Assembly (NCBI GenBank): GCA_022646745.1
Contig: CP060262.1
Coordinates: 2,220,001-2,252,000 of the forward strand
DNA length: 32,000 nucleotides
Reading direction: 5' to 3'
Source of the DNA: Planctomycetales bacterium
Lineage (GTDB): Bacteria; 4484-113; JAFGCY01
Part shown: piece after piece, positions 2,810-16,140 of the stretch
Numbering within the stretch: position 1 is the first letter of the stretch
Layout of the letters: each line of letters begins with the position of its first letter
Position numbers and translations under genes: made by a program
Notes under the pieces: model-generated
Databases searched by the model: none
Seen by the model: only the letters and a program-made list of their open reading frames with translations
Told to the model about the DNA's origin: nothing

Positions 2810-2826
2810 AAGATAGTGGAAGTCAA
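2798..2826 (-). promoter_or_regulatory. sigma70-like promoter of the DUF4177-GntR-SPFH operon
   Basis: On the minus strand: TTGACT (2826-2821), a 17-nt spacer, then TAATAT (2803-2798), about 45 nt upstream of the DUF4177 ATG. Confidence 0.65.
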
Positions 2827-2852
2827 GTGGATTTGCAGCTAAAGCCGCAAAT

Positions 2853-3410
2853 CAGGGAACAGGGAACTGGGAGCAGGGAACTGGGAACAGGGAACTGGGA
2901 ACAGGGAACTGGGAACTGGAGTGGTCAGTGGGCAGTGGGCAGTGGGCAGTGGGCAGTAGCTGCGACTTCCAGTCGCCGGGGAGAGGTTTAAGGTTGGAGT
3001 TTGGAGTGGGGAGGTGCGCAACTTGTTTGCGCACAATGGGAAGGGGTGGAGAAGGCAAAGGGCAGGAGCAGAAACAGAATCAGAAGCAGAAACAGAATGA
3101 GAAGCAGAAACAGAATGAGAAGCAGAATGAGAAGCAAGAGGATGCAGCAGCGCGCCCCGGGCGCGATTGGGAAAGGATGTGGCGAGGTGGGCGCGGCGTC
3201 GATGAAGACGGGCGGCGGTAATACCGCCGCCGGGATGGGGTGTTACTCCATCCCTATGTCATGCAATTGGCATGCATGGCAAACGCCAAGCTTACAGCTT
3301 GGCCTCCTGGCGGGACTGGCCTCCCTCCGTTGTCAGCTTTACAGCTGACCTCCCTCCGTTGTGCGACCTGCGCCGCACATCCGTTGTCAGACTGTCGTCT
3401 GGCCTCCGGG
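2853..3410 (+). repeat. mosaic intergenic element, copy A (modules a-b-c-d-e-f-g-h-k)
   Basis: Contains CAGGGAA/CTGGGAA x9 and GGGCAGT x4 heptamers, a GTAG hairpin (2956-2976) and GTTGGAG-type heptamers. It also has the hairpin GTGCGCAA-CTTGT-TTGCGCAC (3014-3034), an 18-mer GAAGCAGAAACAGAATGA array (3066-3140) and a CGCGCC/GGCGCG hairpin (3151-3165). The 54-nt double hairpin is at 3201-3254, GCCAAGC-TTACA-GCTTGGC at 3285-3303, and there are three TCCGTTG-hairpin units (3326-3410). Homologous to 5038-5205 and 6256-6745. Confidence 0.85.
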
Positions 3411-3455
3411 TAAAAAAATCCTCGCCCTGTCACCATTGTGACTCTCAGGCGAGGA
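3411..3455 (-). terminator. rho-independent terminator of the transglutaminase-like gene
   Basis: On the minus strand the stem TCCTCGCC...GGCGAGGA (3455-3448 / 3426-3419) is followed by a run of seven T (A-run 3412-3418 on the plus strand). Confidence 0.7.
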
Positions 3456-3549
3456 CTCTCGGGTGGTGCGCCGCACTGCCAACTGCAGTGCTGTGCCCGA
3501 TGCGGGCAGGGCTACACCTGCGGGAAGCAAGGACCTGCTTCCCGAAGGG

Positions 3550-4527
3550 TCAGAGGTCGCGGTAGCTGAAGTTTTTGTCAAAGCCGTCGCGGGCCTTGCC
3601 ATCCACTTCAACATAGGGGTAGATCAGGAAGTTCAGCGGTCCGTCCTGCACGCCGGGGATGGCGAGGTCACGGCCCATCACGAACTCGATGCGGTCGTTG
3701 TCAAGGTTGCCGAACAGCTCTTCACGGCGCTCCGGTGCCTTGGCGACCTCACTGGCGTCGATCGGGATCCAGCCCTCGCCGTCCACGTAGAACTCCGCCC
3801 AGCAGTGGTAACCGCCGACAACTCCCGCGGGGGCGTCATTCGGGATCGGGAAGCCCATCAGGAAGCGGGCCGGCACGCCGAGGCTGCGGCTCTCGCCGAT
3901 GAACAGGCTGTGGAAATCCGTGCAGTTGCCATAACGGGCATCGCAGGCCCAGGCAGCGTCACCGCGGCCCCAGCCATCACGGCTCTTGTCGTAGACGACG
4001 GTCGTGACGATGTTGTCATACAGCGCGCGGGCGATGCCGTAGTCGTCGGTCTGGCCGGCGGCGATGCGCTTCGCTTCATCGGCCACGTCACCCTCGAGCG
4101 AGACCATGTTGTCAGGCTTGAGGAAGCGGTCCAGCATCGAGGCGTCGGTGTCATAGCCGTTGGCATAGCCGTAGCGCTCGACCTGGTAGGTCACGTTGAC
4201 CGGCAGGCGGCCCTCGCTGTCCGGCTCGATCGCCAGCAGGTCAACCTGCAGGAAGCTGTTGCCGTACTCCGGGTCCTTGACCATCTCGTAGGAGAGGTCA
4301 CCGGCATCCCAGCCCAGCACCGTCTGGCGCTCATTGCTCGGCGGCACGGGGATCCAGACATAGGCCGACTGGGCTCCCTCGTCCACGGCGGGGATGAACA
4401 CGCCGTAGGTGAATTCCATCTTGCGCGGCTTCAGTGCGCCGTCCATCTCATCCTGCTGGGCCTGGGCCTGGCCGAGCAGTCCGATGGACAGTGCAAGCAG
4501 CGCAAGGGAAAGCAGCTTGCGTTTCAT
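3550..4527 (-). CDS. secreted transglutaminase-like (Cys-His-Asp) protein
   Basis: Signal peptide MKRKLLSLALLALSIGLLGQAQA. Transglutaminase-core motifs YGNCTDFHSLF ... GGYHCWAEFY ... WIPIDAS. AAGGAG RBS. The antisense ORF 3463-4554 is a shadow frame. Confidence 0.85.
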   Translation of the reverse strand: MKRKLLSLALLALSIGLLGQAQAQQDEMDGALKPRKMEFTYGVFIPAVDEGAQSAYVWIPVPPSNERQTVLGWDAGDLSYEMVKDPEYGNSFLQVDLLAIEPDSEGRLPVNVTYQVERYGYANGYDTDASMLDRFLKPDNMVSLEGDVADEAKRIAAGQTDDYGIARALYDNIVTTVVYDKSRDGWGRGDAAWACDARYGNCTDFHSLFIGESRSLGVPARFLMGFPIPNDAPAGVVGGYHCWAEFYVDGEGWIPIDASEVAKAPERREELFGNLDNDRIEFVMGRDLAIPGVQDGPLNFLIYPYVEVDGKARDGFDKNFSYRDL

Positions 4528-4644
4528 GCTTACTCCTTATATATATGGGATTAAACGGGACGTGTCCGGTCCCGGATAGTAATGTAGCCTACCGTCGGAC
4601 GCGATTTGTTGATTTAGTGTTCTCATTTGAGGAGAGGGCTGAGC

Positions 4645-5037
4645 ATGGAGCTGCAGAAATTCTGGAAGTACACGGTCTACAAGGAGGTGGAATTCGCCGC
4701 CTCGCATTTCCTGCGCGAGTACCACGGCAAGTGCGAGCACCTGCACGGGCACAACTACGTGGTGCGGGTCTACGTCAGCGCGAATGAGCTGGACGGCGAG
4801 GGTATGGTGTACGACTTCGTGAAGCTCAAGCAGGTGATGAATGATGTGTTCTACGAGCGCTTCGACCATAAGCACCTGAATAACATCCCGCCCTTTGACG
4901 AGATCAACCCTTCGGCGGAGAACATCGCGACCTGGATCGGCGAGCAAATGGGCGGCCTGCTGGACGACGGCCGGGTGCGGGTGACGGAAGTGCGGGTCTG
5001 GGAGACGGCTCGCAATGGGGCGATTTACAGGAGGTAG
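4645..5037 (+). CDS. queD: 6-carboxy-5,6,7,8-tetrahydropterin synthase (PTPS family)
   Basis: EFAASHFL...CEHLHGHNYVVRVYV...FDHKHLN motifs of QueD/PTPS. ATG at 4645 behind GAGGAGAGG; the tracked ORF starts at a TTG at 4627. Confidence 0.88.
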   Translation: MELQKFWKYTVYKEVEFAASHFLREYHGKCEHLHGHNYVVRVYVSANELDGEGMVYDFVKLKQVMNDVFYERFDHKHLNNIPPFDEINPSAENIATWIGEQMGGLLDDGRVRVTEVRVWETARNGAIYRR

Positions 5038-5205
5038 TTGTCAGTGGTCAGAGGTCAGTGGTCAGTGGGCAGTAGCGGCGGCTTCCAGCCGCCGGGGTAG
5101 GTTGGAGGTTGGAGGTTGGAGTGAGGAGGTTGGAGGATAGGCAGTAGGCAGAAGGTAGTAGGCAGAAAGCAGGGGGCAGGGGGCAGGGGGCTATGATGGG
5201 CAGGT
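5038..5205 (+). repeat. mosaic intergenic element, copy B (modules a-b-c-d), 24 consecutive heptamers
   Basis: Starts at the nucleotide after the queD TAG. Contains GGTCAGT/GGGCAGT heptamers, a GTAG hairpin (5072-5094), GTTGGAG x5, AGnnnGC heptamers and AGGGGGC x3. Colinear with 2923-3065. Confidence 0.85.
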
Positions 5206-5223
5206 CACATCGGGGAGTGGAAC

Positions 5224-6255
5224 ATGGACAGAAAGATATTCGTCGGGATGTGCTCGGCACTGCTGGTGCTTGTGCTGGTGGTGATCGGCATGCTGCTGTG
5301 GATGCAGCAGAAGGGTACGTTCAGCCTTGCCAACCTGATCCTGGCACCGCAGCAGCAGGATGCAATGCAGCTGCAGAACAGTTCAGACTGGCAGCTGCGC
5401 GAGGATGCGGTCTGGATGTACTACGGCATCGGCCAGCCGGTTGACGACGAACAGGCCGAGCAGATGCTGCGCCGGGGCTACGCACAGGGGGACATGCTGG
5501 CCGGTGGGCACCTGTACACCCTGCTGGTTGGTGCGGACGACGGACCGAACAGGCTGGTGGAGGCGGATGAGATCTTCTACGAGTCATACCCCGTCCTGTA
5601 CGAGCTGTCGGAGAATGGCAACGTGGAGGCCAGCTTCCTGCTGGCATGGATATACTTCGGCAGTGATGACCCGCAGTGGAGCGATTTCTGCCGGAACGCC
5701 GCCCGCAATGCGGCCCAGGCGCATTACGTTCCGGGCCTGCAGCTGTATGGCTACATGCTGCGGGAGGGCAAGCATGTCGAACGGGATCCGGCGGATGCCA
5801 TGCAGTGGTACCGCATCAGCGCACAGCAGGGCTGCATCTACGGACGGCTGGGAATGGCGGAGGTATATGCGGATGTGGACTACCCCAACTATGACGTGAC
5901 TGAGGCGCTGAGGATCCTCGACGAGGTGGTGCAGGAGGGGGAGCTCAGTGCACACAAGCAAATAGGCGAGATTCATGAACTTGGCAACGGTGTGGCGGTG
6001 GACCGTGAGCTGGCGCGCCAACACTATGAGCTGGCGATCGCTGATGGCGACGTGGAAGCACGGCTGAAGCTGGCGCGCTGCCTGCTGCGCAGTGATGCAC
6101 CGAGTGCCGCGGACATCGAGGAAGCCGCGGAGCTGTTGCTGCAGGTGGATGAACTGTGGTCGCTGGTACCGGAGGATCGCAGGGGTGATACGGATGAGCG
6201 CAAGCTGCTGGTGGAGCTGCAGGCGGAAGTTGAGAAGCTGGAAAGCGGGCAGTAA
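5224..6255 (+). CDS. Sel1-like repeat (SLR/TPR-like) protein with N-terminal membrane anchor
   Basis: Hydrophobic N-terminus (FVGMCSALLVLVLVVIGMLLW). Several Sel1-type repeats (AMQWYRISAQQGCIYGRLGMAEVYA; GNGVAVDRELARQHYELAIADGDVEARLKLARCLL). Confidence 0.8.
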   Translation: MDRKIFVGMCSALLVLVLVVIGMLLWMQQKGTFSLANLILAPQQQDAMQLQNSSDWQLREDAVWMYYGIGQPVDDEQAEQMLRRGYAQGDMLAGGHLYTLLVGADDGPNRLVEADEIFYESYPVLYELSENGNVEASFLLAWIYFGSDDPQWSDFCRNAARNAAQAHYVPGLQLYGYMLREGKHVERDPADAMQWYRISAQQGCIYGRLGMAEVYADVDYPNYDVTEALRILDEVVQEGELSAHKQIGEIHELGNGVAVDRELARQHYELAIADGDVEARLKLARCLLRSDAPSAADIEEAAELLLQVDELWSLVPEDRRGDTDERKLLVELQAEVEKLESGQ

Positions 6256-6745
6256 AGGAGAGGTAGGAGGTTGGAGTGGGGAGGTTGGACAGAAGGCAGG
6301 AGGCAAAACGAGATTGAGAAGCAGAATGAGAATGAGAAGCAGAATGAGAAAGATAAGCAGGTGGATGTAGCGGTGCGCCCCTGGCGCGATTGGTAGAGGA
6401 TATGGCAAAGCGGGAGATGGCGGTGATGAAGTAGGGCGGCGGTGATACCGCCGCCGGGATGGGGTATTACCCCATTTCTACGTAATGCCATAGCGTGACT
6501 GGCACTTGCCAGGCTTACAGCTTGGCCTCCCCTAAGCAATGAGTTGTGAAGAGTGAGCAATGAGTGTTTTGCAGGTCGAAGTTTCCACCAGCCCATCTCA
6601 GGTTCATGGTTCATTGCTCATCACTAGCCAGCCCGGAATGTTCCGGCTGCATCCTGCTGCGCGGGACTGACCTCCATCCGTTGCCAAGCCTACAGCCTGG
6701 CCTCCGTGCGAGCTTGTACCCAAGCACAACGTAGTGCCTGGGCTA
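6256..6745 (+). repeat. mosaic intergenic element, copy C (modules c-d-e-f-g-h-i-j-k)
   Basis: Starts at the nucleotide after the Sel1 TAA. Contains nnnGGAG heptamers (6256-6304), a GAGAAGCAGAAT array (6313-6355) and GTAGC plus a CGCGCC/GGCGCG hairpin (6367-6395). The 54-nt double hairpin is at 6425-6478, GCCAGGC-TTACA-GCTTGGC at 6508-6526 and the AGCAATGAG/CTCATTGCT long hairpin at 6531-6625. The CCGGAATGTTCCGG hairpin is at 6629-6650 and one TCCGTTG unit at 6677-6706. Confidence 0.85.
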
Positions 6746-6775
6746 ACGATAGTCCTGTCTCAGTTGCGATTCTTA

Positions 6776-6804
6776 TTGAAATAAAGCTTAATTGACTGTA
6801 TGGT
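6776..6804 (+). promoter_or_regulatory. sigma70-like promoter of the 901-aa lipoprotein gene
   Basis: TTGAAA (6776-6781), a 17-nt spacer, then TATGGT (6799-6804), inside the only AT-rich patch of this gap and 65 nt upstream of the ATG. Confidence 0.55.
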
Positions 6805-6868
6805 TTATCTAGCCGGAATCTAATGCGGCCGGCCATGTGCTGCCGTCCGTACCGGAAAGGAAGCTCAT

Positions 6869-9574
6869 ATGGCCAGAACAGTGCTCATTGCATTACTGTG
6901 CTGCCTGATCCTCGTCTCCTGCGGTGGCGGGGGCGGAAATACCCCTGACCCTTCCACTGACAGGCCACTCCTCGATAAGCTGCCCGAGGAGCTGCGCAAT
7001 CCCGAGACCCCGGCCGGGGTCGACCCCGTCATCTTCGGGAAACTCGTCGCCCGGCTCCAGCAGGTGGTGCTGGAGAACCCGCGCGGTGCAGCCGCCACGG
7101 CGGAGGATGCAGCATCCGCGGTGCAGCTGGAATGGGATCAGTCCATGTCCCGCCTGCACTGGATGCACCGCATGAAGGGCGACTATGACAACAACGGGGA
7201 GGTGAACATCTCCGACATCACACCGATTGCTCTGTACTTCGGCCAGAGCGGGCCCTTCGCTGACGACAGCCCGCAGAAGGTCGTGGACGGAGATGGCAAC
7301 GGGGAGATCAACATCGCGGACGTGACACCGATCGGAATCAACTTCAGCCGGCGGATCACCGGGTTCAGGCTGTTCACCAGCAACGATGGCGACGACCTCT
7401 CCCTGCCGGCGATCCAGCTGCCTGCGGTGCAGACCATCGCCTTCGCCGACGGCACTGTGCTGCCCGGCGGCCTGCGCGAATTCGAGCTGCCGGTCACGCC
7501 GGACAGCAGCGGTCACTTCTTCTGGCTGCGCCCGACTGACGGCGAGGAGCTCGGCATTGCCAGCAACATCGCCGGCCCCGGACGCTTGCCAATCGCCGTG
7601 CTGTCGGTGCGCCCCTGGATCGGTGAGCCGGCCGGCGCTGACTTCAACGGCGGCAGCAGCTCATCGCCACTGGGGCTCGTGCTCAGCTACGAGTTCGACG
7701 TCCAGGATGACGGCACCTTCGAATTCAACGGGCCAGCGTCCGTTGTCAGCAGCGACCTGCCCGGACTGGGCAGTTACACCGCCAGGCTGCGCGTGACTGA
7801 CCAGAACGGCACGATGGCAAGCGTGCGGCGCCAGTACAGCGTGCTGGCGGTGAGCGGCGGCGTGGCCGAGGTCGGCATCGGCGGCGGCCAGCTCACGCTC
7901 GGCGACGTCAAGGTGCATGTGCTGCCGGGTGTGCTGCTGGGCGACGTGAATGTCAGCGCGGAACCGGCGGAACTGCCGGCGGGCCTGCCGGAGAGCTTCA
8001 ACACCAGCGGGGGCGCGACCCGCATCGAGCTGTCCGACGAGGACCTGCTGAATGCACCGCTTTTGCTGGAGCTGCCCTACGATGACAGCGGGATGGAGGA
8101 CGAGCGGACGGTCAGCGTGCTGTTCTTTGACGAGCAGGGCGGCTGGCTGCCGACGACACCCGTCGAGGTCAACCGGGAGCTGAACCGCATCACCGTTGAC
8201 AGCCGCCGCTTCGGCGTGTTCGTGGTGGGCTGGTTCGACATCTCCAAGATCATCGGCTTCCTGCAGTCCAGCCTGCCGTTCGACCCCGAGCTGCACGGCT
8301 GGAACATCAACAACTTCGGCAACTACTTCTCACCAGGTGGCAACTGCCTCGGGATGTCAGGCTACTGCCAGTGGTTCTATACCGAGGGCCCGCATGAGAT
8401 CCTGAACGGCAAGTACAGCAGTGCAGGCGGCAACCCCGTCAGCATCGCGCACCTGACCGCCGCCCGGGCCCACCTGGCCCAGAGCCAGGCCTGGGCCTTC
8501 CACTACTGGGACGGCCAGATGGCCAGTTCCGAACCGCTGGTCGGCCTGATGATGAAGGTCTACCTGTCGGTGTTCGAGGACCCGCTCGTGCTGCTGCTCG
8601 GTGTCAACGGCAGCGGACGGCACGCCTGCGTGGTGTATGACTACGACGACACGGGCTTCACCTTCTACGACGTCAACAGCAAGGACAACGAGCAGTTCCT
8701 GCCCTTCGATGGCAACGCTGGATTCGGCAGCTACGGCAGCTACAACTCCTTCGGATTCGTCGGCCTGCCCTCGCTCGGGCGCGCCGAGGACTTCAACCAG
8801 CTGACGGATGAGGCGGAAAGCGGCTTCGCGCTGTCGCAGGACATCGCGCTGACAAGCCCCGTGCCGGACCAGCTGGTGGCCGGTGACACCGTCAGCGTGA
8901 CCGGCAACCTGCTGAGCGGGCTGAACGGGCAGTCGGAGGTGATTGCCTATGTCAATGGCGTGCTGTACACCCTGCCTGTCGCCAGCGGCTTCTTCAATGG
9001 CAGCGTGCCGGTGTCGACGGGTGAGAACACCATCATCCTGATGGCGGGCACGATGAGCCAGAGCGACTGGAAGCGCAACGGGGCGACGCTCGTACGCAAT
9101 GTGAGCGGCATCATCGCGCTCAACAAGGTGGCGTTCTACAACTGCTGGGCCAAGAACCAGTCGGACCTCGACCTGTACGTGATCGAGCCCCAGGGTGAGG
9201 CGGTCTGGTCGCAGCGCCAGCGCAGCAAGAGCCTGCTGAGCATGGTGATGGACAACGAGAGCGGCTACGGCCCGGAGGCGATCATGCTCAAGCCTGACAA
9301 CGACGGGCAGGTGCTGCCGGGCCAGTACCTCGTCAGGGTGCACTACCGCGCGGACCTCGGGGGCTTCACGCCGACGGGTCCGGTGGTCGGTCGCGTGACC
9401 GTGGTGCTCAATGAGGGCAGCGAGGACATGCAGCTGTACGCGATCCCCTACGAGCTGAAGGTATCCAACCCGGACAACATCAGCCCGGACGGAGAGGGGG
9501 ATGACTGGGCGGACATCGCGCTGATCGATGTCGCCAACGGCGTGGTCACTCCGCTCACGCCCGGCGGCATGTAG
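6869..9574 (+). CDS. large multidomain lipoprotein: dockerin-like Ca-binding pair, Ig/PKD-like region, Cys/His papain-fold-like module, DUF2135-like C-terminus
   Basis: Lipobox LILVSC followed by GGGGG. Two dockerin-type segments (DYDNNGEVNISDITPIALYF and DGDGNGEINIADVTPIGINF, nt 7181-7345). PKD-like segment TARLRVTDQNGTMASV. GGNCLGMSGYC (Cys codon 8345) and GRHACVVYDYDD..FYDVN (His codon 8621). C-terminal DLDLYVIEPQGE...DNESGYGPEAI...GQYLVRVHY. Confidence 0.85.
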   Translation: MARTVLIALLCCLILVSCGGGGGNTPDPSTDRPLLDKLPEELRNPETPAGVDPVIFGKLVARLQQVVLENPRGAAATAEDAASAVQLEWDQSMSRLHWMHRMKGDYDNNGEVNISDITPIALYFGQSGPFADDSPQKVVDGDGNGEINIADVTPIGINFSRRITGFRLFTSNDGDDLSLPAIQLPAVQTIAFADGTVLPGGLREFELPVTPDSSGHFFWLRPTDGEELGIASNIAGPGRLPIAVLSVRPWIGEPAGADFNGGSSSSPLGLVLSYEFDVQDDGTFEFNGPASVVSSDLPGLGSYTARLRVTDQNGTMASVRRQYSVLAVSGGVAEVGIGGGQLTLGDVKVHVLPGVLLGDVNVSAEPAELPAGLPESFNTSGGATRIELSDEDLLNAPLLLELPYDDSGMEDERTVSVLFFDEQGGWLPTTPVEVNRELNRITVDSRRFGVFVVGWFDISKIIGFLQSSLPFDPELHGWNINNFGNYFSPGGNCLGMSGYCQWFYTEGPHEILNGKYSSAGGNPVSIAHLTAARAHLAQSQAWAFHYWDGQMASSEPLVGLMMKVYLSVFEDPLVLLLGVNGSGRHACVVYDYDDTGFTFYDVNSKDNEQFLPFDGNAGFGSYGSYNSFGFVGLPSLGRAEDFNQLTDEAESGFALSQDIALTSPVPDQLVAGDTVSVTGNLLSGLNGQSEVIAYVNGVLYTLPVASGFFNGSVPVSTGENTIILMAGTMSQSDWKRNGATLVRNVSGIIALNKVAFYNCWAKNQSDLDLYVIEPQGEAVWSQRQRSKSLLSMVMDNESGYGPEAIMLKPDNDGQVLPGQYLVRVHYRADLGGFTPTGPVVGRVTVVLNEGSEDMQLYAIPYELKVSNPDNISPDGEGDDWADIALIDVANGVVTPLTPGGM

Positions 9575-9585
9575 TCAGTTGCAGG

Positions 9586-9637
9586 AAAGGCAGTGGCCGG
9601 CTGCGGGTGCACAGCCCGTGGCTGGCCACCGGCCTTT
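9586..9637. terminator. long imperfect hairpin flanked by AAA/TTT (possible bidirectional terminator)
   Basis: AAAGGC.GTGGCC ... GGCCAC.GGCCTTT with an inner CGGG-TGCACAG-CCCG stem, 12 nt after the lipoprotein stop. The T-run is short, so termination efficiency is uncertain. Confidence 0.45.
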
Positions 9638-9893
9638 GTCAGAAATGAGTACTGAAGAGTAAGCAATGAGAGTCGAGGAGGTCGAAGTAATCTCCGATCC
9701 TTGTCAGGCTCATTGCTGATTCCTCATTGCTCATCACTTGCCAGGCCGGAATGTTTTGGCTGCATCCGGCTGCACGGGGCGGAGCTCCATCCGTTGCCCG
9801 AATGACATCGGGCCTCCGACTACCGCTGAAGCGGGTAGCTCCGTTGTCAGACTTTCGTCTGACCTCCGTTGCCAAGCTAACAACTTGGCCTCC
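9638..9893 (+). repeat. mosaic intergenic element, copy D (modules i-j-k)
   Basis: AGCAATGAG/CTCATTGCT long hairpin (9643-9737), the CCGGAATGTTTTGG hairpin (9742-9762) and TCCGTTG-hairpin units at 9790, 9840 and 9865. The final CCTCC (9889-9893) abuts the complement of the phoU stop codon. Homologous to 6531-6706. Confidence 0.85.
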
Positions 9894-13605: not shown

Positions 13606-14814
13606 CTAGACCAGCGGCTGGCCGTCCTCGCCCTTGATCTCACTGGACCACATCGCCTCGACGCTCTCCACCACGGAGGCCGGCATCGGGATGTAGTCGA
13701 GGCCGAGCGCTTCCTCACTGCCGTACTCGAAGGCCCACTTGAAGAACTTGAGCGCTTCGGTGGAGGAGGCGTCATCCTCGGGGGTCTTGTACATCAGGAT
13801 GAAGGTGGCGGCGGTCATCGGCCAGGTGGCGTCACCAGGCTGGTTGGCGAGGATCACGCCATAGCCGGGCACGCTGTTCCAGTCAGCGCTGGCGGCCGCG
13901 GCGGCGAATGCGTCTGCATCCGGGCTGACGGTCTTGCCGGCCTGGTTGATCATGTTGCAGTGCGTCATGTTGTTCTGCTTGGCATATGCGTACTCAACAT
14001 AGCCGATGCTGTTCTTGGCGCCGGCCACGTTCTGGGCCACGCCTTCGTTGCCCTTGGCACCGATGCCGACCGGCCACTCAACGGCCTTGTCAACACCGAT
14101 CCCGGTCTTCCAGGCCTCACTGACCTCTGCCAGGTAGTAGGTGAAGTTGTAGGTGGTGCCGGAACCGTCTGAACGGGTGACGACGTTGATGCTGGTCTCG
14201 GGCAGGCTGACACCCTCGTTGAGGGCGGCGATCGCGGGGTCATTCCACATCGTGACCTTGCCCATGAAGATGTCGGCGAGGGTGCTGCCATCCAGGGTGA
14301 GCTGGCCGGCCTCGATGCCCTCGAGGTTGATGACGGGGACGATGCCGCCCATCACCATCGGCCACTGCACGAGGCCGCTTTCCGCCAGCTCCTCGCCGCT
14401 GAGCGGGGCATCGGTGGCACCGAAGGTGACGGTCTTCGCCTGGATCTGCTTGATGCCGCCGCCGGAGCCGATGGACTGGTAGTTCAGGCCGATGCCGGTT
14501 TCCTTCTGGTAGCTGTCTGCCCACTTGGAGTAGACCGGGTAGGGGAAGGTCGCACCGGCACCGGAGATCTGGCCGACGCTGCCGGCTGAAGCGGTGTCAG
14601 TGGCGGATGTGTCCGTTGCCGAGCTGTCGGTGCTGCCGCTGGCGCTGCCGTTGTCGGAAGTGCCGGACGTGCTCGTGCTGCTGGAGTCGGTGGACGTGCT
14701 GTCGCTGCCGGACGGGCAACCCGCTGCGAACGCTGCCAGGCTGGCAAGGGTTGCCAGCAGGACCAGCGCGCGGAGCGGGAAGAAGTTATTCAGGGTGATG
14801 CCTGTGCGATTCAT
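13606..14814 (-). CDS. pstS: phosphate-binding protein PstS, lipoprotein form with Ser/Thr/Asp-rich tether
   Basis: Start at MNRTG behind GGAGGT (7-nt spacer). Lipobox FAAGC, then a low-complexity S/T/D linker of about 45 aa (nt 14581-14715), then the PstS core (GAGATFPYPVYSKWA..., TRSDGSGTT). The tracked ORF extends to 14985. Confidence 0.9.
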   Translation of the reverse strand: MNRTGITLNNFFPLRALVLLATLASLAAFAAGCPSGSDSTSTDSSSTSTSGTSDNGSASGSTDSSATDTSATDTASAGSVGQISGAGATFPYPVYSKWADSYQKETGIGLNYQSIGSGGGIKQIQAKTVTFGATDAPLSGEELAESGLVQWPMVMGGIVPVINLEGIEAGQLTLDGSTLADIFMGKVTMWNDPAIAALNEGVSLPETSINVVTRSDGSGTTYNFTYYLAEVSEAWKTGIGVDKAVEWPVGIGAKGNEGVAQNVAGAKNSIGYVEYAYAKQNNMTHCNMINQAGKTVSPDADAFAAAAASADWNSVPGYGVILANQPGDATWPMTAATFILMYKTPEDDASSTEALKFFKWAFEYGSEEALGLDYIPMPASVVESVEAMWSSEIKGEDGQPLV

Positions 14815-14841
14815 TGATATACCTCCGTAATAGGCAGGGAG

Positions 14842-14884
14842 AATGTACTGAGGCTGTATGTGGATTTCGTGAAGATAACGTGAA
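14842..14884 (-). promoter_or_regulatory. Pho box plus -10 of the lipoprotein-type pstS
   Basis: On the minus strand TTCAC(14884-14880)-N6-TTCAC(14873-14869)-N4-TCCAC(14864-14860), then TACATT (14847-14842) 21 nt after the second repeat. Confidence 0.65.
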
Positions 14885-14987
14885 TCCACATGAAATCTTG
14901 ACAAATCCGCTGTGCTGGCAACCACCTGGATTGCCAGGCGGTCGTTTATCTGGCCAGCGGCTCCGCTGGATGGACTGGCCGGCAAAG

Positions 14988-15051: not shown

Positions 15052-16140
15052 TTAGATCAGCGGCTTGCCGTTGGCGCCCTTGATCTCCTTGGCCCACATC
15101 GCCTCGACGCTGTCCACGACGGACTTCGGCATCGGGATGTAGTCAAGGCCGAGCGCTTCGGTGTCACCCTTCTCGAAGGCCCACTTGAAGAACTTCAGGG
15201 CCTGGGCGGAAGCGGCGTCATCCTCGGGGCTCTTGTACATCAGGATGAAGGTGGCGGCGGTCATCGGCCAGGTGCTGTCACCGGGCTGGTTGGCAAGGAT
15301 CACACCGTAACCGGGGACGCTGCTCCAGTCGGCACTGGCAGCGGCAGCAGCGAAGGCGTCGGCATCCGGGCTGACGGCCTTGCCGGCCTTGTTGATCATC
15401 CTGGTGTAAGTCAGGCCGTTCTGCTTGGCATAGGCGTACTCGACGTAGCCGATGCTGTTCTTCGCGCCGGCCACGTTCTGGGCCACGCCCTCATTGCCCT
15501 TGGCACCGATGCCGACCGGCCACTCGACGGCCTTGTCAACACCGATCTCGCTCTTCCACGCACTGCTGACCTCGGCCAGGTAGTAGGTGAAGTTGTAGGT
15601 GGTGCCGGAACCGTCGGAACGGGTGACGACGTTGATGCTGGTGCCCGGCAGGCTGACGCCGCCGTTGAGCTTGGCAATCGCGGGATCGTTCCACTTCGTG
15701 ATCTTGCCCATGAAGATGTTGGCAAGGGTCGCGCCATCGAGCACGAGCTGGCCGGGCTTGACACCATCGACGTTGATGACGGGGACGATGCCGCCCATCA
15801 CCATCGGCCACTGCACGAGGCCGGACTCACTGAGCTCCTGGCCGCTGAGAGGGGCGTCGGTGGCGCCGAAGGTGACGGTCTTGGCCTTGATCTGCTTGAT
15901 GCCACCGCCGGAACCGATGGACTGGTAGTTCAGGCCGACACCGGTCTCCTTCTGGTAGCTGTCCGCCCACTTGGAGTAGACCGGGTACGGGAAGGTCGCT
16001 CCCGCGCCGGCGATCTGCTCGGCGGAATAGGCCGGGGAGCCGTTGAATCCGGCTGCCACTGCTGCAAACATGACGATTCCGATGAAGACCATGATGGCCT
16101 TCAGGGGACTGTTCTTCAGGTTCTTACCTGTGCGCTTCAT
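15052..16140 (-). CDS. pstS: phosphate-binding protein PstS, signal-peptide/anchor form
   Basis: Paralog of 13606-14814 with a long, near-colinear nucleotide match by eye. N-terminus is MKRTGKNLKNSPLKAIMVFIGIVMFAAVAAG, with no lipobox Cys and no S/T linker. GGAGGT RBS. Confidence 0.93.
   Translation of the reverse strand: MKRTGKNLKNSPLKAIMVFIGIVMFAAVAAGFNGSPAYSAEQIAGAGATFPYPVYSKWADSYQKETGVGLNYQSIGSGGGIKQIKAKTVTFGATDAPLSGQELSESGLVQWPMVMGGIVPVINVDGVKPGQLVLDGATLANIFMGKITKWNDPAIAKLNGGVSLPGTSINVVTRSDGSGTTYNFTYYLAEVSSAWKSEIGVDKAVEWPVGIGAKGNEGVAQNVAGAKNSIGYVEYAYAKQNGLTYTRMINKAGKAVSPDADAFAAAAASADWSSVPGYGVILANQPGDSTWPMTAATFILMYKSPEDDAASAQALKFFKWAFEKGDTEALGLDYIPMPKSVVDSVEAMWAKEIKGANGKPLI

Follow-up and report, generated by a model that had tools for sequence, protein, structure and literature searches.

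The stretch of DNA analysed here, referred to as the window, comprises 32,000 nucleotides of a Planctomycetales bacterium (assembly GCA_022646745.1, contig CP060262.1, positions 2,220,001 to 2,252,000 of the forward strand). Four of its non-coding gaps, A to D, located between 2.85 and 9.9 kb, very probably form a mosaic resembling the bacterial interspersed mosaic elements (BIMEs), rather than a new single element. The mosaic is made up of two kinds of repeat: hairpins of the repetitive extragenic palindromic (REP) type, which belong with REP-associated tyrosine transposases (RAYTs), and tandem arrays of heptamers. The gaps separate ordinary chromosomal genes in the order 60-aa open reading frame (ORF; -), transglutaminase-like (-), QueD/PTPS (+), Sel1-repeat protein (+), 901-aa protein (+) and PhoU (-). 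Gap A precedes the transglutaminase gene on the map, B lies between queD and Sel1, C between Sel1 and the 901-aa gene, and D between the latter and phoU. Modules a to k, into which the first-pass annotation had resolved the gaps, were all recovered with coordinates unchanged, and they are homologous, colinear and non-coding.

REP hairpins account for modules h and k, which are RAYT-associated in a related genome. The exact pattern of module h, GCCARGCYWACARCYTGGCCTCC, was scanned against one genome per species (185,579 species). It returned 55 loci, of which 53, with 63 matches, lie in three metagenome-assembled genomes (MAGs) titled UBP7 HKST-UBA01, UBP7 HKST-UBA03 and AC1.30 (26, 26 and 11 exact matches per genome). 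The other two loci are chance matches within coding regions of unrelated MAGs. The DNA used for comparison consists of 8-kb pieces around the h matches; these loci were chosen for carrying h and some are mutually orthologous, so counts drawn from them are not independent. On the minus strand of the window, the class reads GGAGG-stem-loop-stem-CAACGGA. Its consensus in head orientation is GGAG-G-stem-loop-stem-CAA(C)GGA, combined with dozens of differing stems. A perfect hairpin of at least six pairs stands directly before 5.7% of CTCC sites in about 450 kb of UBP7 loci, compared with 0.5–1% for most control tetramers, and the same DNA holds 257 hairpin-CTCC units, few of them in divergent gaps. 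When units are defined by their flanks, stems of at least five pairs are present in 15 of 24, against 1.9% of shuffles, and 21 distinct hairpin bodies occur.

The link to transposases comes from three genes. Locus L006 of AC1.30 contains a 200-aa ORF (3030-3632) with the HUH motif NHVHLI and the tyrosine motif YVHYNPV. The product scores 95.2 bits against the NCBIfam model NF047646, REP-associated tyrosine transposase (REP_Tyr_transpos; cut-off 80), and also matches Pfam Y1_Tnp. Its left flank is GGAGGCCAAGCTGTAAGCTTGGC and its right flank carries four copies of GCCAAGCTTACAGCTTGGCC(T/C)...; the flanks are inverted copies of module h whose heads point outward, as is classical for RAYT genes. 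A second RAYT, at L026 (94.8 bits), is flanked by the inverted GGAGG-type REPs GGAGGTCGAGCGCCAGCTCGGCG and GGAGGTCTGGCGCAAGCCAGGCG. A third, at L046 of HKST-UBA01 (89.1 bits), runs at its 3' end into k-type REPs. The search for a RAYT proposed in the first-pass annotation was thus positive in related genomes. Two side observations concern REPs and coding sequence. In the HKST-UBA01 RAYT gene, about 15 codons at the 3' end (L046 2100-2154) consist of REP sequence, and REPs abut or overlap its stop codon. At L017 3080-3230, four GGAGG-type REPs in a row apparently lie within a (-) ORF, which may be an intragenic REP insertion as in other species.

Within the window, the k unit TCCGTTG-N15-19-CCTCC occurs six times, always on the plus strand, where 0.03 would be expected, and module h occurs four times against an expectation of 0. 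Copy A ends in four head-to-tail GGAGG-headed REPs (modules h and k, 3279-3410, heads on the minus strand), which are sense to the transglutaminase gene (DNA fold z = -3.85). Copy D ends in a comparable run of four (9790-9893, heads on the minus strand; three GGAGG heads and one GGAGC), which abuts the phoU stop and is sense to phoU (DNA fold z = -4.33). Both runs fold into rows of independent hairpins. Pattern matching places two further GGAGG-headed REPs on the minus strand of copy C: a module h unit at 6508-6530, identical in type to the REPs flanking the L006 RAYT, and a k/h unit at 6677-6705. Copy A contains in addition a REP in the opposite orientation, GGAGGTGCGCAA-cttgt-TTGCGCACAATGG (3010-3042), which was found in the hairpin scan with its head on the plus strand. 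The earlier statement that all modules lie on the plus strand is therefore correct for the shared stretches and wrong for this unit.

A GTAG head marks modules b, f and g, which are REPs or REP doublets. In the UBP7 loci, GTAG followed by a hairpin is about threefold enriched and falls into two recurring classes. The GTAGC class, GTAGC-GGCGGC-N4-GCCGCC-GGG, takes in module b, with module f as a variant. The GTAGGG class is module g, GTAGGG-CGGCGGT-aat-ACCGCCG-CCGGG-ATGGGGT-gtt-ACCCCAT-CCCTAC, that is, two REPs in inverted orientation, like the doublets known as REPINs. Its pairing is supported by covariation: across eight copies at five loci, pairing holds in 97.6% of cells and five pairs have changed in a compensatory way, a level matched by 0 of 500 shuffles and by none of the slid controls. 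A metagenome scan with the module g core returned two chance coding matches and nothing else. The GTAG head is carried by module b, by module f of copy C and by module g, while modules h and k carry GGAG(G). The GTAG-hairpin scan detected module b on the plus strand of copy A (2956-2981, GTAGC-headed, hairpin GCGACT-tcc-AGTCGC) and of copy B (5072-5097, GTAGC-GGCGGCT-tcc-AGCCGCCG). Alignment places module f on the plus strand at 3140-3171 in copy A, in the degenerate form GCAGC-AGCGCGCC-ccg-GGCGCG-ATTGG, and at 6362-6393 in copy C, with a GTAGC head (GTGCGCC-cct-GGCGCGA). The inverted doublet g, recognized by covariation, occupies 3204-3264 in copy A, where its head is degenerate, and 6428-6488 in copy C. 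The first-pass annotation had seen in these modules no described REP, BIME, miniature inverted-repeat transposable element (MITE), riboswitch or non-coding RNA (ncRNA) family. As regards Rfam this stands, the search having given 0 matches at gathering thresholds and only noise at E <= 1 (E 0.47-0.76). It does not stand for the hairpins, given the exact h units inverted around the L006 RAYT and the GTAG-headed b, f and g.

The second half of the mosaic consists of arrays of heptamers and related units (modules a, c, d and e). Seven is the commonest tandem-repeat period in 461 kb of sampled DNA, with 141 arrays, followed by periods 9 (87), 12 (62) and 6 (40). The units form a graded family, GGTCAGT, GGGCAGT, AGGCAGT, AGGCAGA and GCAGAA, to which GGTTGGA, CWGGGAA, GGGACCN and GCAATGA are added. 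In the window, Tandem Repeats Finder (TRF) detects tandem arrays with heptamer units (2855-2957, 5036-5191 and 6260-6289) and with 18-mer units (3067-3127 and 6310-6360), all of which belong to plus-strand modules. Copy A begins with module a1, (CWGGGAA)n (2853-2919), continues with module a2, (GGKCAGT)n (2920-2957), and has further on the purine-rich module e, a GCAGAA hexamer and 18-mer array (3062-3136). Copy B starts from the queD stop codon with a2 as (GGTCAGT)n (5036-5073), and after module b come the c and d heptamers GGTTGGA, AGGCAGN and GCAGGGG (5099-5191). The c, d and e arrays of copy C, heptamers and 18-mers, start 5 nt past the Sel1 stop codon (6260-6360). Four canonical G-quadruplex motifs, (G3N1-7)x4, are present in the window by a regular-expression scan, and three of them are in arrays a1, a2 and d: in a1 at 2855-2913, where the G3N4 form fits, in the GGGCAGT array at 2930-2953 and in the GCAGGGG array at 5172-5200. 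Module i consists of GCAATGA/TCATTGC arrays that face each other in inverted orientation across a core, and it is itself dispersed. Repeat search and folding locate it at 6532-6626 in copy C, where it is followed by module j, the palindrome CCGGAATGTTCCGG (6633-6646, repeat search). In copy D, modules i and j (9638-9759; alignment and fold) are paralogous to those of copy C and 75% identical.

The CAGT|AGC junction raised the idea that the arrays are a by-product of GTAGC REP heads. This was rejected: a GTAGC REP directly follows only 4 of 28 CAGT-type arrays, and arrays precede just 6 of 31 such REPs, so that the two have no obligatory link. Two other sequences were seen in or near arrays. 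Three HKST-UBA01 contig ends (L012 1-75, L012 3328-3402 and L018 5342-5462) stop in one and the same sequence of about 75 nt, GAAACCGTTACCTATGTTCTGAACCTAAACCATTACCTATGTATTGAACCTGTACC. It interrupts heptamer arrays d and e and probably represents the terminus of an unassembled insertion sequence or MITE that targets or tolerates these arrays. The sequence GTGGAAGTCAAGTGG is present once in the window (2818-2836, in the promoter region of the 60-aa ORF), and in HKST-UBA03 (L024 366-410) it is the unit of a 20-mer tandem repeat.

Both kinds of repeat are polar with respect to genes. The counts rest on crude gene calls based on GC3 and are approximate. The G-rich strand of heptamer arrays is sense to the gene whose 3' end precedes in 58 cases and antisense in 21 (73%, p = 4e-5). 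No more than 12 nt separates 17 of the arrays from a stop codon, and every one of these is sense; divergent gaps hold just two arrays. REP heads are sense to the gene whose 3' end precedes in 128 of 178 units (72%); 61 of the 81 units in convergent gaps are sense to the nearer gene, and divergent gaps hold seven units. The earlier view that orientation is independent of the genes thus finds no support across related loci. A polarity set by the replication strand had been suspected from GC skew and the orientation of h, and was discarded: it fits 74 of 178 units (42%), whereas gene direction fits 72%. The skew itself is a separate observation. From about 2.8 kb on, nearly all 400-nt bins have positive skew whatever the gene strand, although more coding sequence lies on the minus strand of the window; before that point the skew is slightly negative. 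Convergent gaps of AC1.30 are large palindromes of the form stop-a2-d-e-centre-e'-d'-a2'-stop. In the window, arrays follow the (+) genes queD and Sel1 and a now-missing kptA, and REP tails (CCTCC on the plus strand) follow the (-) genes for transglutaminase and PhoU. The uniform plus-strand appearance of the window is explained by this convergent-gap layout together with gene gain and loss.

The similarity among the four gaps is local. Direct-repeat search, MAFFT and BLAST agree on same-strand, colinear relationships: A and B are 85% identical over 96 nt, A and C 79% over 232 nt, and C and D 75% over about 150 nt. The shared plus-strand stretches are 2920-2981 and 5036-5097 for A and B (87%); 3081-3191 and 6304-6414 (73%) and 3195-3267 and 6419-6491 (84%) for A and C; and 6535-6621 and 9641-9727 (74%) and 6611-6685 and 9724-9798 (88%) for C and D. 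None of modules a to k occurs in the gaps from 9.9 to 32 kb, which hold plain promoter and terminator sequence, and the reported confinement to four gaps is borne out. The gaps are not assembly artefacts. A separate Logan contig of 3.4 kb (L001), the only one matching a query with the 901-aa gene, matches window 6446-9872 at 100% identity, and sequence of these kinds is also present in the three independent MAG assemblies.

Comparison with relatives reveals rapid turnover. HKST-UBA01 contigs match the window at about 95% identity, HKST-UBA03 at about 89%. At orthologous REP sites (window 2915-3215, L012 1995-2235, L024 1180-1330), the flanks are conserved and the hairpin bodies differ. The body of module b is TGCGAC/GTCGCC in the window, GGCGGCG/CGCCGCC in HKST-UBA01 and GGCGGCA/TGCCGCT in HKST-UBA03. 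The array beside it is homogenized, to GGGCAGT in the window as against GGTCAGT in HKST-UBA01. Whole genes also come and go. The 901-aa gene (6869-9574), called a lipoprotein gene in the first-pass annotation, has a promoter-like site (6776-6804) and a downstream hairpin, and its product gives weak, sub-threshold PKD and dockerin matches. Neither HKST-UBA01 nor HKST-UBA03 has this gene in the orthologous Sel1-phoU gap, and by parsimony it was gained in the lineage of the window. It sits between an h-i-j stretch orthologous to that of HKST-UBA03 (90%) and the paralogous i-j stretch of copy D (75%), flanks that recombination between dispersed modules would leave. A kptA/Tpt1 gene for RNA 2'-phosphotransferase (Pfam PF01885) precedes copy A in both relatives (L012 2229-2885(-); L024 about 615-1175) and is missing from the window (site 2840-2853). 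Array a2 lies directly downstream of (+) kptA in both, about 4 nt past its stop in HKST-UBA01. With kptA lost, a1 and a2 lack the (+) gene upstream that such arrays would normally follow.

Such comparisons bear on the rival explanations. The first-pass annotation saw in the gaps overlapping fragments of one master arrangement, so that a single composite non-coding mobile element of about 0.6-0.7 kb, running from a to k, would have moved or been copied as a unit, leaving truncated copies in the four gaps. The colinearity of the shared modules in all four gaps speaks for such an element, as do two more e-f-g-h copies in L012 of HKST-UBA01. Those copies lie in the orthologous neighbourhood, however, and stretches of e-f-g-h longer than 200 nt are found only there and in window copies A and C. 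Among the 23 h-containing loci of the closest genome, the composite is confined to that neighbourhood. Elsewhere only single modules are present, dispersed independently in both orientations. The order also varies. AC1.30 has the palindromic a-d-e..e'-d'-a' order; HKST-UBA03 has a-e-b-c-doublet-REP-c-d in the queD/Sel1 gap and b-c-doublet...h-i-j-k leading directly to phoU in the Sel1 gap; HKST-UBA01 has in its Sel1 gap module c, other REP doublets and REPs of the type flanking the L026 RAYT, then phoU. Copies A to D end at different modules and have neither ends nor terminal inverted repeats nor target duplications in common. A single element is very unlikely on this evidence. Another proposal regards the mosaics as portable homology or recombination sites that exchange gene cassettes (kptA, Sel1 and the 901-aa gene), with the duplicated c-d and i-j-k modules as scars of Campbell-type integration. 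It draws on the position of the 901-aa gene between direct i-j-k copies and its absence in both relatives, on the c-d copies on both sides of Sel1, and on the mapping of kptA presence or absence to the mosaic. The flanking copies are, however, just 75-88% identical, a Pfam scan of the window's 20 largest ORFs turned up no integrase or recombinase, and, unlike integron cassettes, the genes do not share one orientation. Only three events are involved, and ordinary homologous recombination between dispersed repeats would be equally expected to yield them. Dedicated cassette sites are accordingly unlikely. Exchange of cassettes driven by RAYTs or by recombination, with REP and heptamer modules as portable homology and strict polarity to transcription, is unlikely as well. 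It is suggested by REP bodies that seem swapped at fixed flanks, by homogenized arrays, and by kptA and the 901-aa gene coming and going between direct repeats. If it were true, the mosaics would do more than collect selfish repeats.

Alternatively, the gaps might encode a structured ncRNA or a cis-regulatory RNA; candidates would be a riboswitch, a large ncRNA or an RNA that acts as a protein sponge through repeated GGA motifs. The hairpins are conserved with compensatory changes, and the repeats are polar to genes and so probably transcribed. The GGA-rich heptamers CAGGGAA and GGTTGGA bring to mind CsrB-type repeats. Against an RNA of this kind, Rfam gave noise alone, the content of orthologous positions is not conserved between genomes 89-95% identical, and RAYT recognition of hairpin DNA would explain the covariation equally well. 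Copy A, moreover, lies past a terminator and ahead of a promoter. The intrinsic terminator of the transglutaminase gene, a hairpin followed by U7 on the minus strand, occupies 3411-3460 between the gene and the REP array; it was overlooked by a consensus terminator scan owing to its long loop and was revealed by folding. Copy A starts beyond this terminator, with a promoter-like site on its other side at 2826-2798, and falls outside the transcription signals of both neighbouring genes. A structured RNA is thus highly improbable.

The interpretation as a REP/RAYT and heptamer mosaic must itself face several contrary points. The 32-kb window contains no RAYT, the association being seen in related genomes only. 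The head of modules h and k is GGAG(G) and not the canonical GTAG. The REPs of the window stand head to tail, neither in inverted pairs of the REPIN type nor alternating as in Escherichia coli BIMEs; GGAG...CTCC doublets occur in L018 and L024. The REPs of copy C are antisense to Sel1, and the polarity rule holds there only if the 901-aa gene was inserted later. Finally, stem mismatches on the head strand show no asymmetry (G:T 13, A:C 13), and therefore nothing in them backs a role at the RNA level.

The mosaic of REP hairpins and heptamer arrays could have arisen as follows, by analogy with established REP/RAYT and microsatellite biology. (i) The two repeat kinds fill 3'-side intergenic DNA in the lineage labelled UBP7. 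(ii) The REPs are non-autonomous elements of REP/REPIN type that would be spread and replaced in trans by a RAYT of the HUH/Y1 type acting on single-stranded hairpin DNA, a mobilization to which the differing hairpin bodies at orthologous sites could point, though indirectly. (iii) G-rich or purine-rich heptamer, hexamer and 18-mer arrays start at or near stop codons, and probably grow and homogenize by slippage. (iv) Both kinds sit downstream of genes, their G-rich or head strand being sense to the upstream gene, and are probably transcribed in 3' untranslated regions (UTRs) and may affect termination or the stability and protection of mRNA 3' ends. (v) A convergent gap would then read (+) gene, arrays and REP heads, REP tails, (-) gene, giving uniform strand polarity. 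(vi) The colinear similarity of A to D would be local paralogy, produced by duplication and by recombination among modules. Gain of the 901-aa gene between C and D and loss of kptA before A probably contributed.

Both halves of the mosaic have clear precedents. GTAG-tagged REPs are described from eight phyla, with several classes per genome and with dimers; they mostly follow ORFs, in unidirectional and convergent gaps, and REPs flank the RAYT genes (Di Nocera et al. 2013, PMC3733652). The sequences described here resemble REP/REPIN-RAYT systems in several respects: the hairpins measure 20-30 nt and have an unpaired head that is conserved; a genome carries dozens of extragenic copies, which fall into several classes and include inverted doublets; the copies follow ORFs in unidirectional or convergent gaps; and RAYT genes stand between inverted copies of the same REP. 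They differ in the GGAG(G) head of the main class, in units that are mostly head to tail with overlapping CAAC-GGAGG junctions, in marked sense polarity to the upstream gene, and in a host from an uncultured lineage labelled UBP7. BIMEs of E. coli are likewise intergenic mosaics of REPs and other short conserved motifs in combinations that vary by locus. The REPs of BIMEs alternate in orientation (Y/Z) with defined linker motifs; compared by arrangement, window copies A, C and D have tandem one-strand REPs mixed with long heptamer arrays. Heptamer repeats are also known as the cyanobacterial STRR sequences. G-rich GGGNATC heptamers of Xanthomonas and Nostoc are plentiful in non-coding DNA and rare between divergent ORFs (Rehm et al. 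2015, PMC4692102). The present arrays resemble them in unit length, abundance in non-coding DNA and rarity in divergent gaps, and some fit a G3N4 quadruplex. Their units are different and far more varied (GGKCAGT, CWGGGAA, GGTTGGA, AGGCAGN, GCAATGA), many have GG tracts only, and they are interleaved with REPs. Direct repeats of the intergenic heptamer TAACTGA occupy many gaps per genome in Beggiatoaceae, Cyanobacteria and Bacteroidetes (MacGregor 2015, PMC4679880). Those tandem heptamers are of one unit type and lie just upstream of start codons, whereas the diverse units here come after stop codons. What sets the present case apart from known systems is the GGAG(G) head, the head-to-tail REP runs with overlapping junctions, the diversity of heptamers, the intimate mixing of REPs and arrays, and the host lineage.

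The 60-aa ORF corresponds to the DUF4177 gene of the first-pass annotation. After PhoU come pstBAC, two pstS genes, phoR/phoB-like genes and others. The pstS genes are tandem paralogues (PBP_like_2; 13606-14985 and 15052-16140), which share stretches of 86-87% identity spaced 1446 nt apart.

REP/REPIN-RAYT systems have, to our knowledge, been studied almost entirely in Proteobacteria. The present sequences document a REP/RAYT case in an uncultured lineage labelled UBP7, with at least three RAYT genes and several REP classes. The sense polarity of both repeat types in three genomes points to transcription-linked insertion or to selection on 3' UTRs. In practice, the repeats break short-read assemblies of this lineage, and they mark sites of gene gain and loss between close strains.

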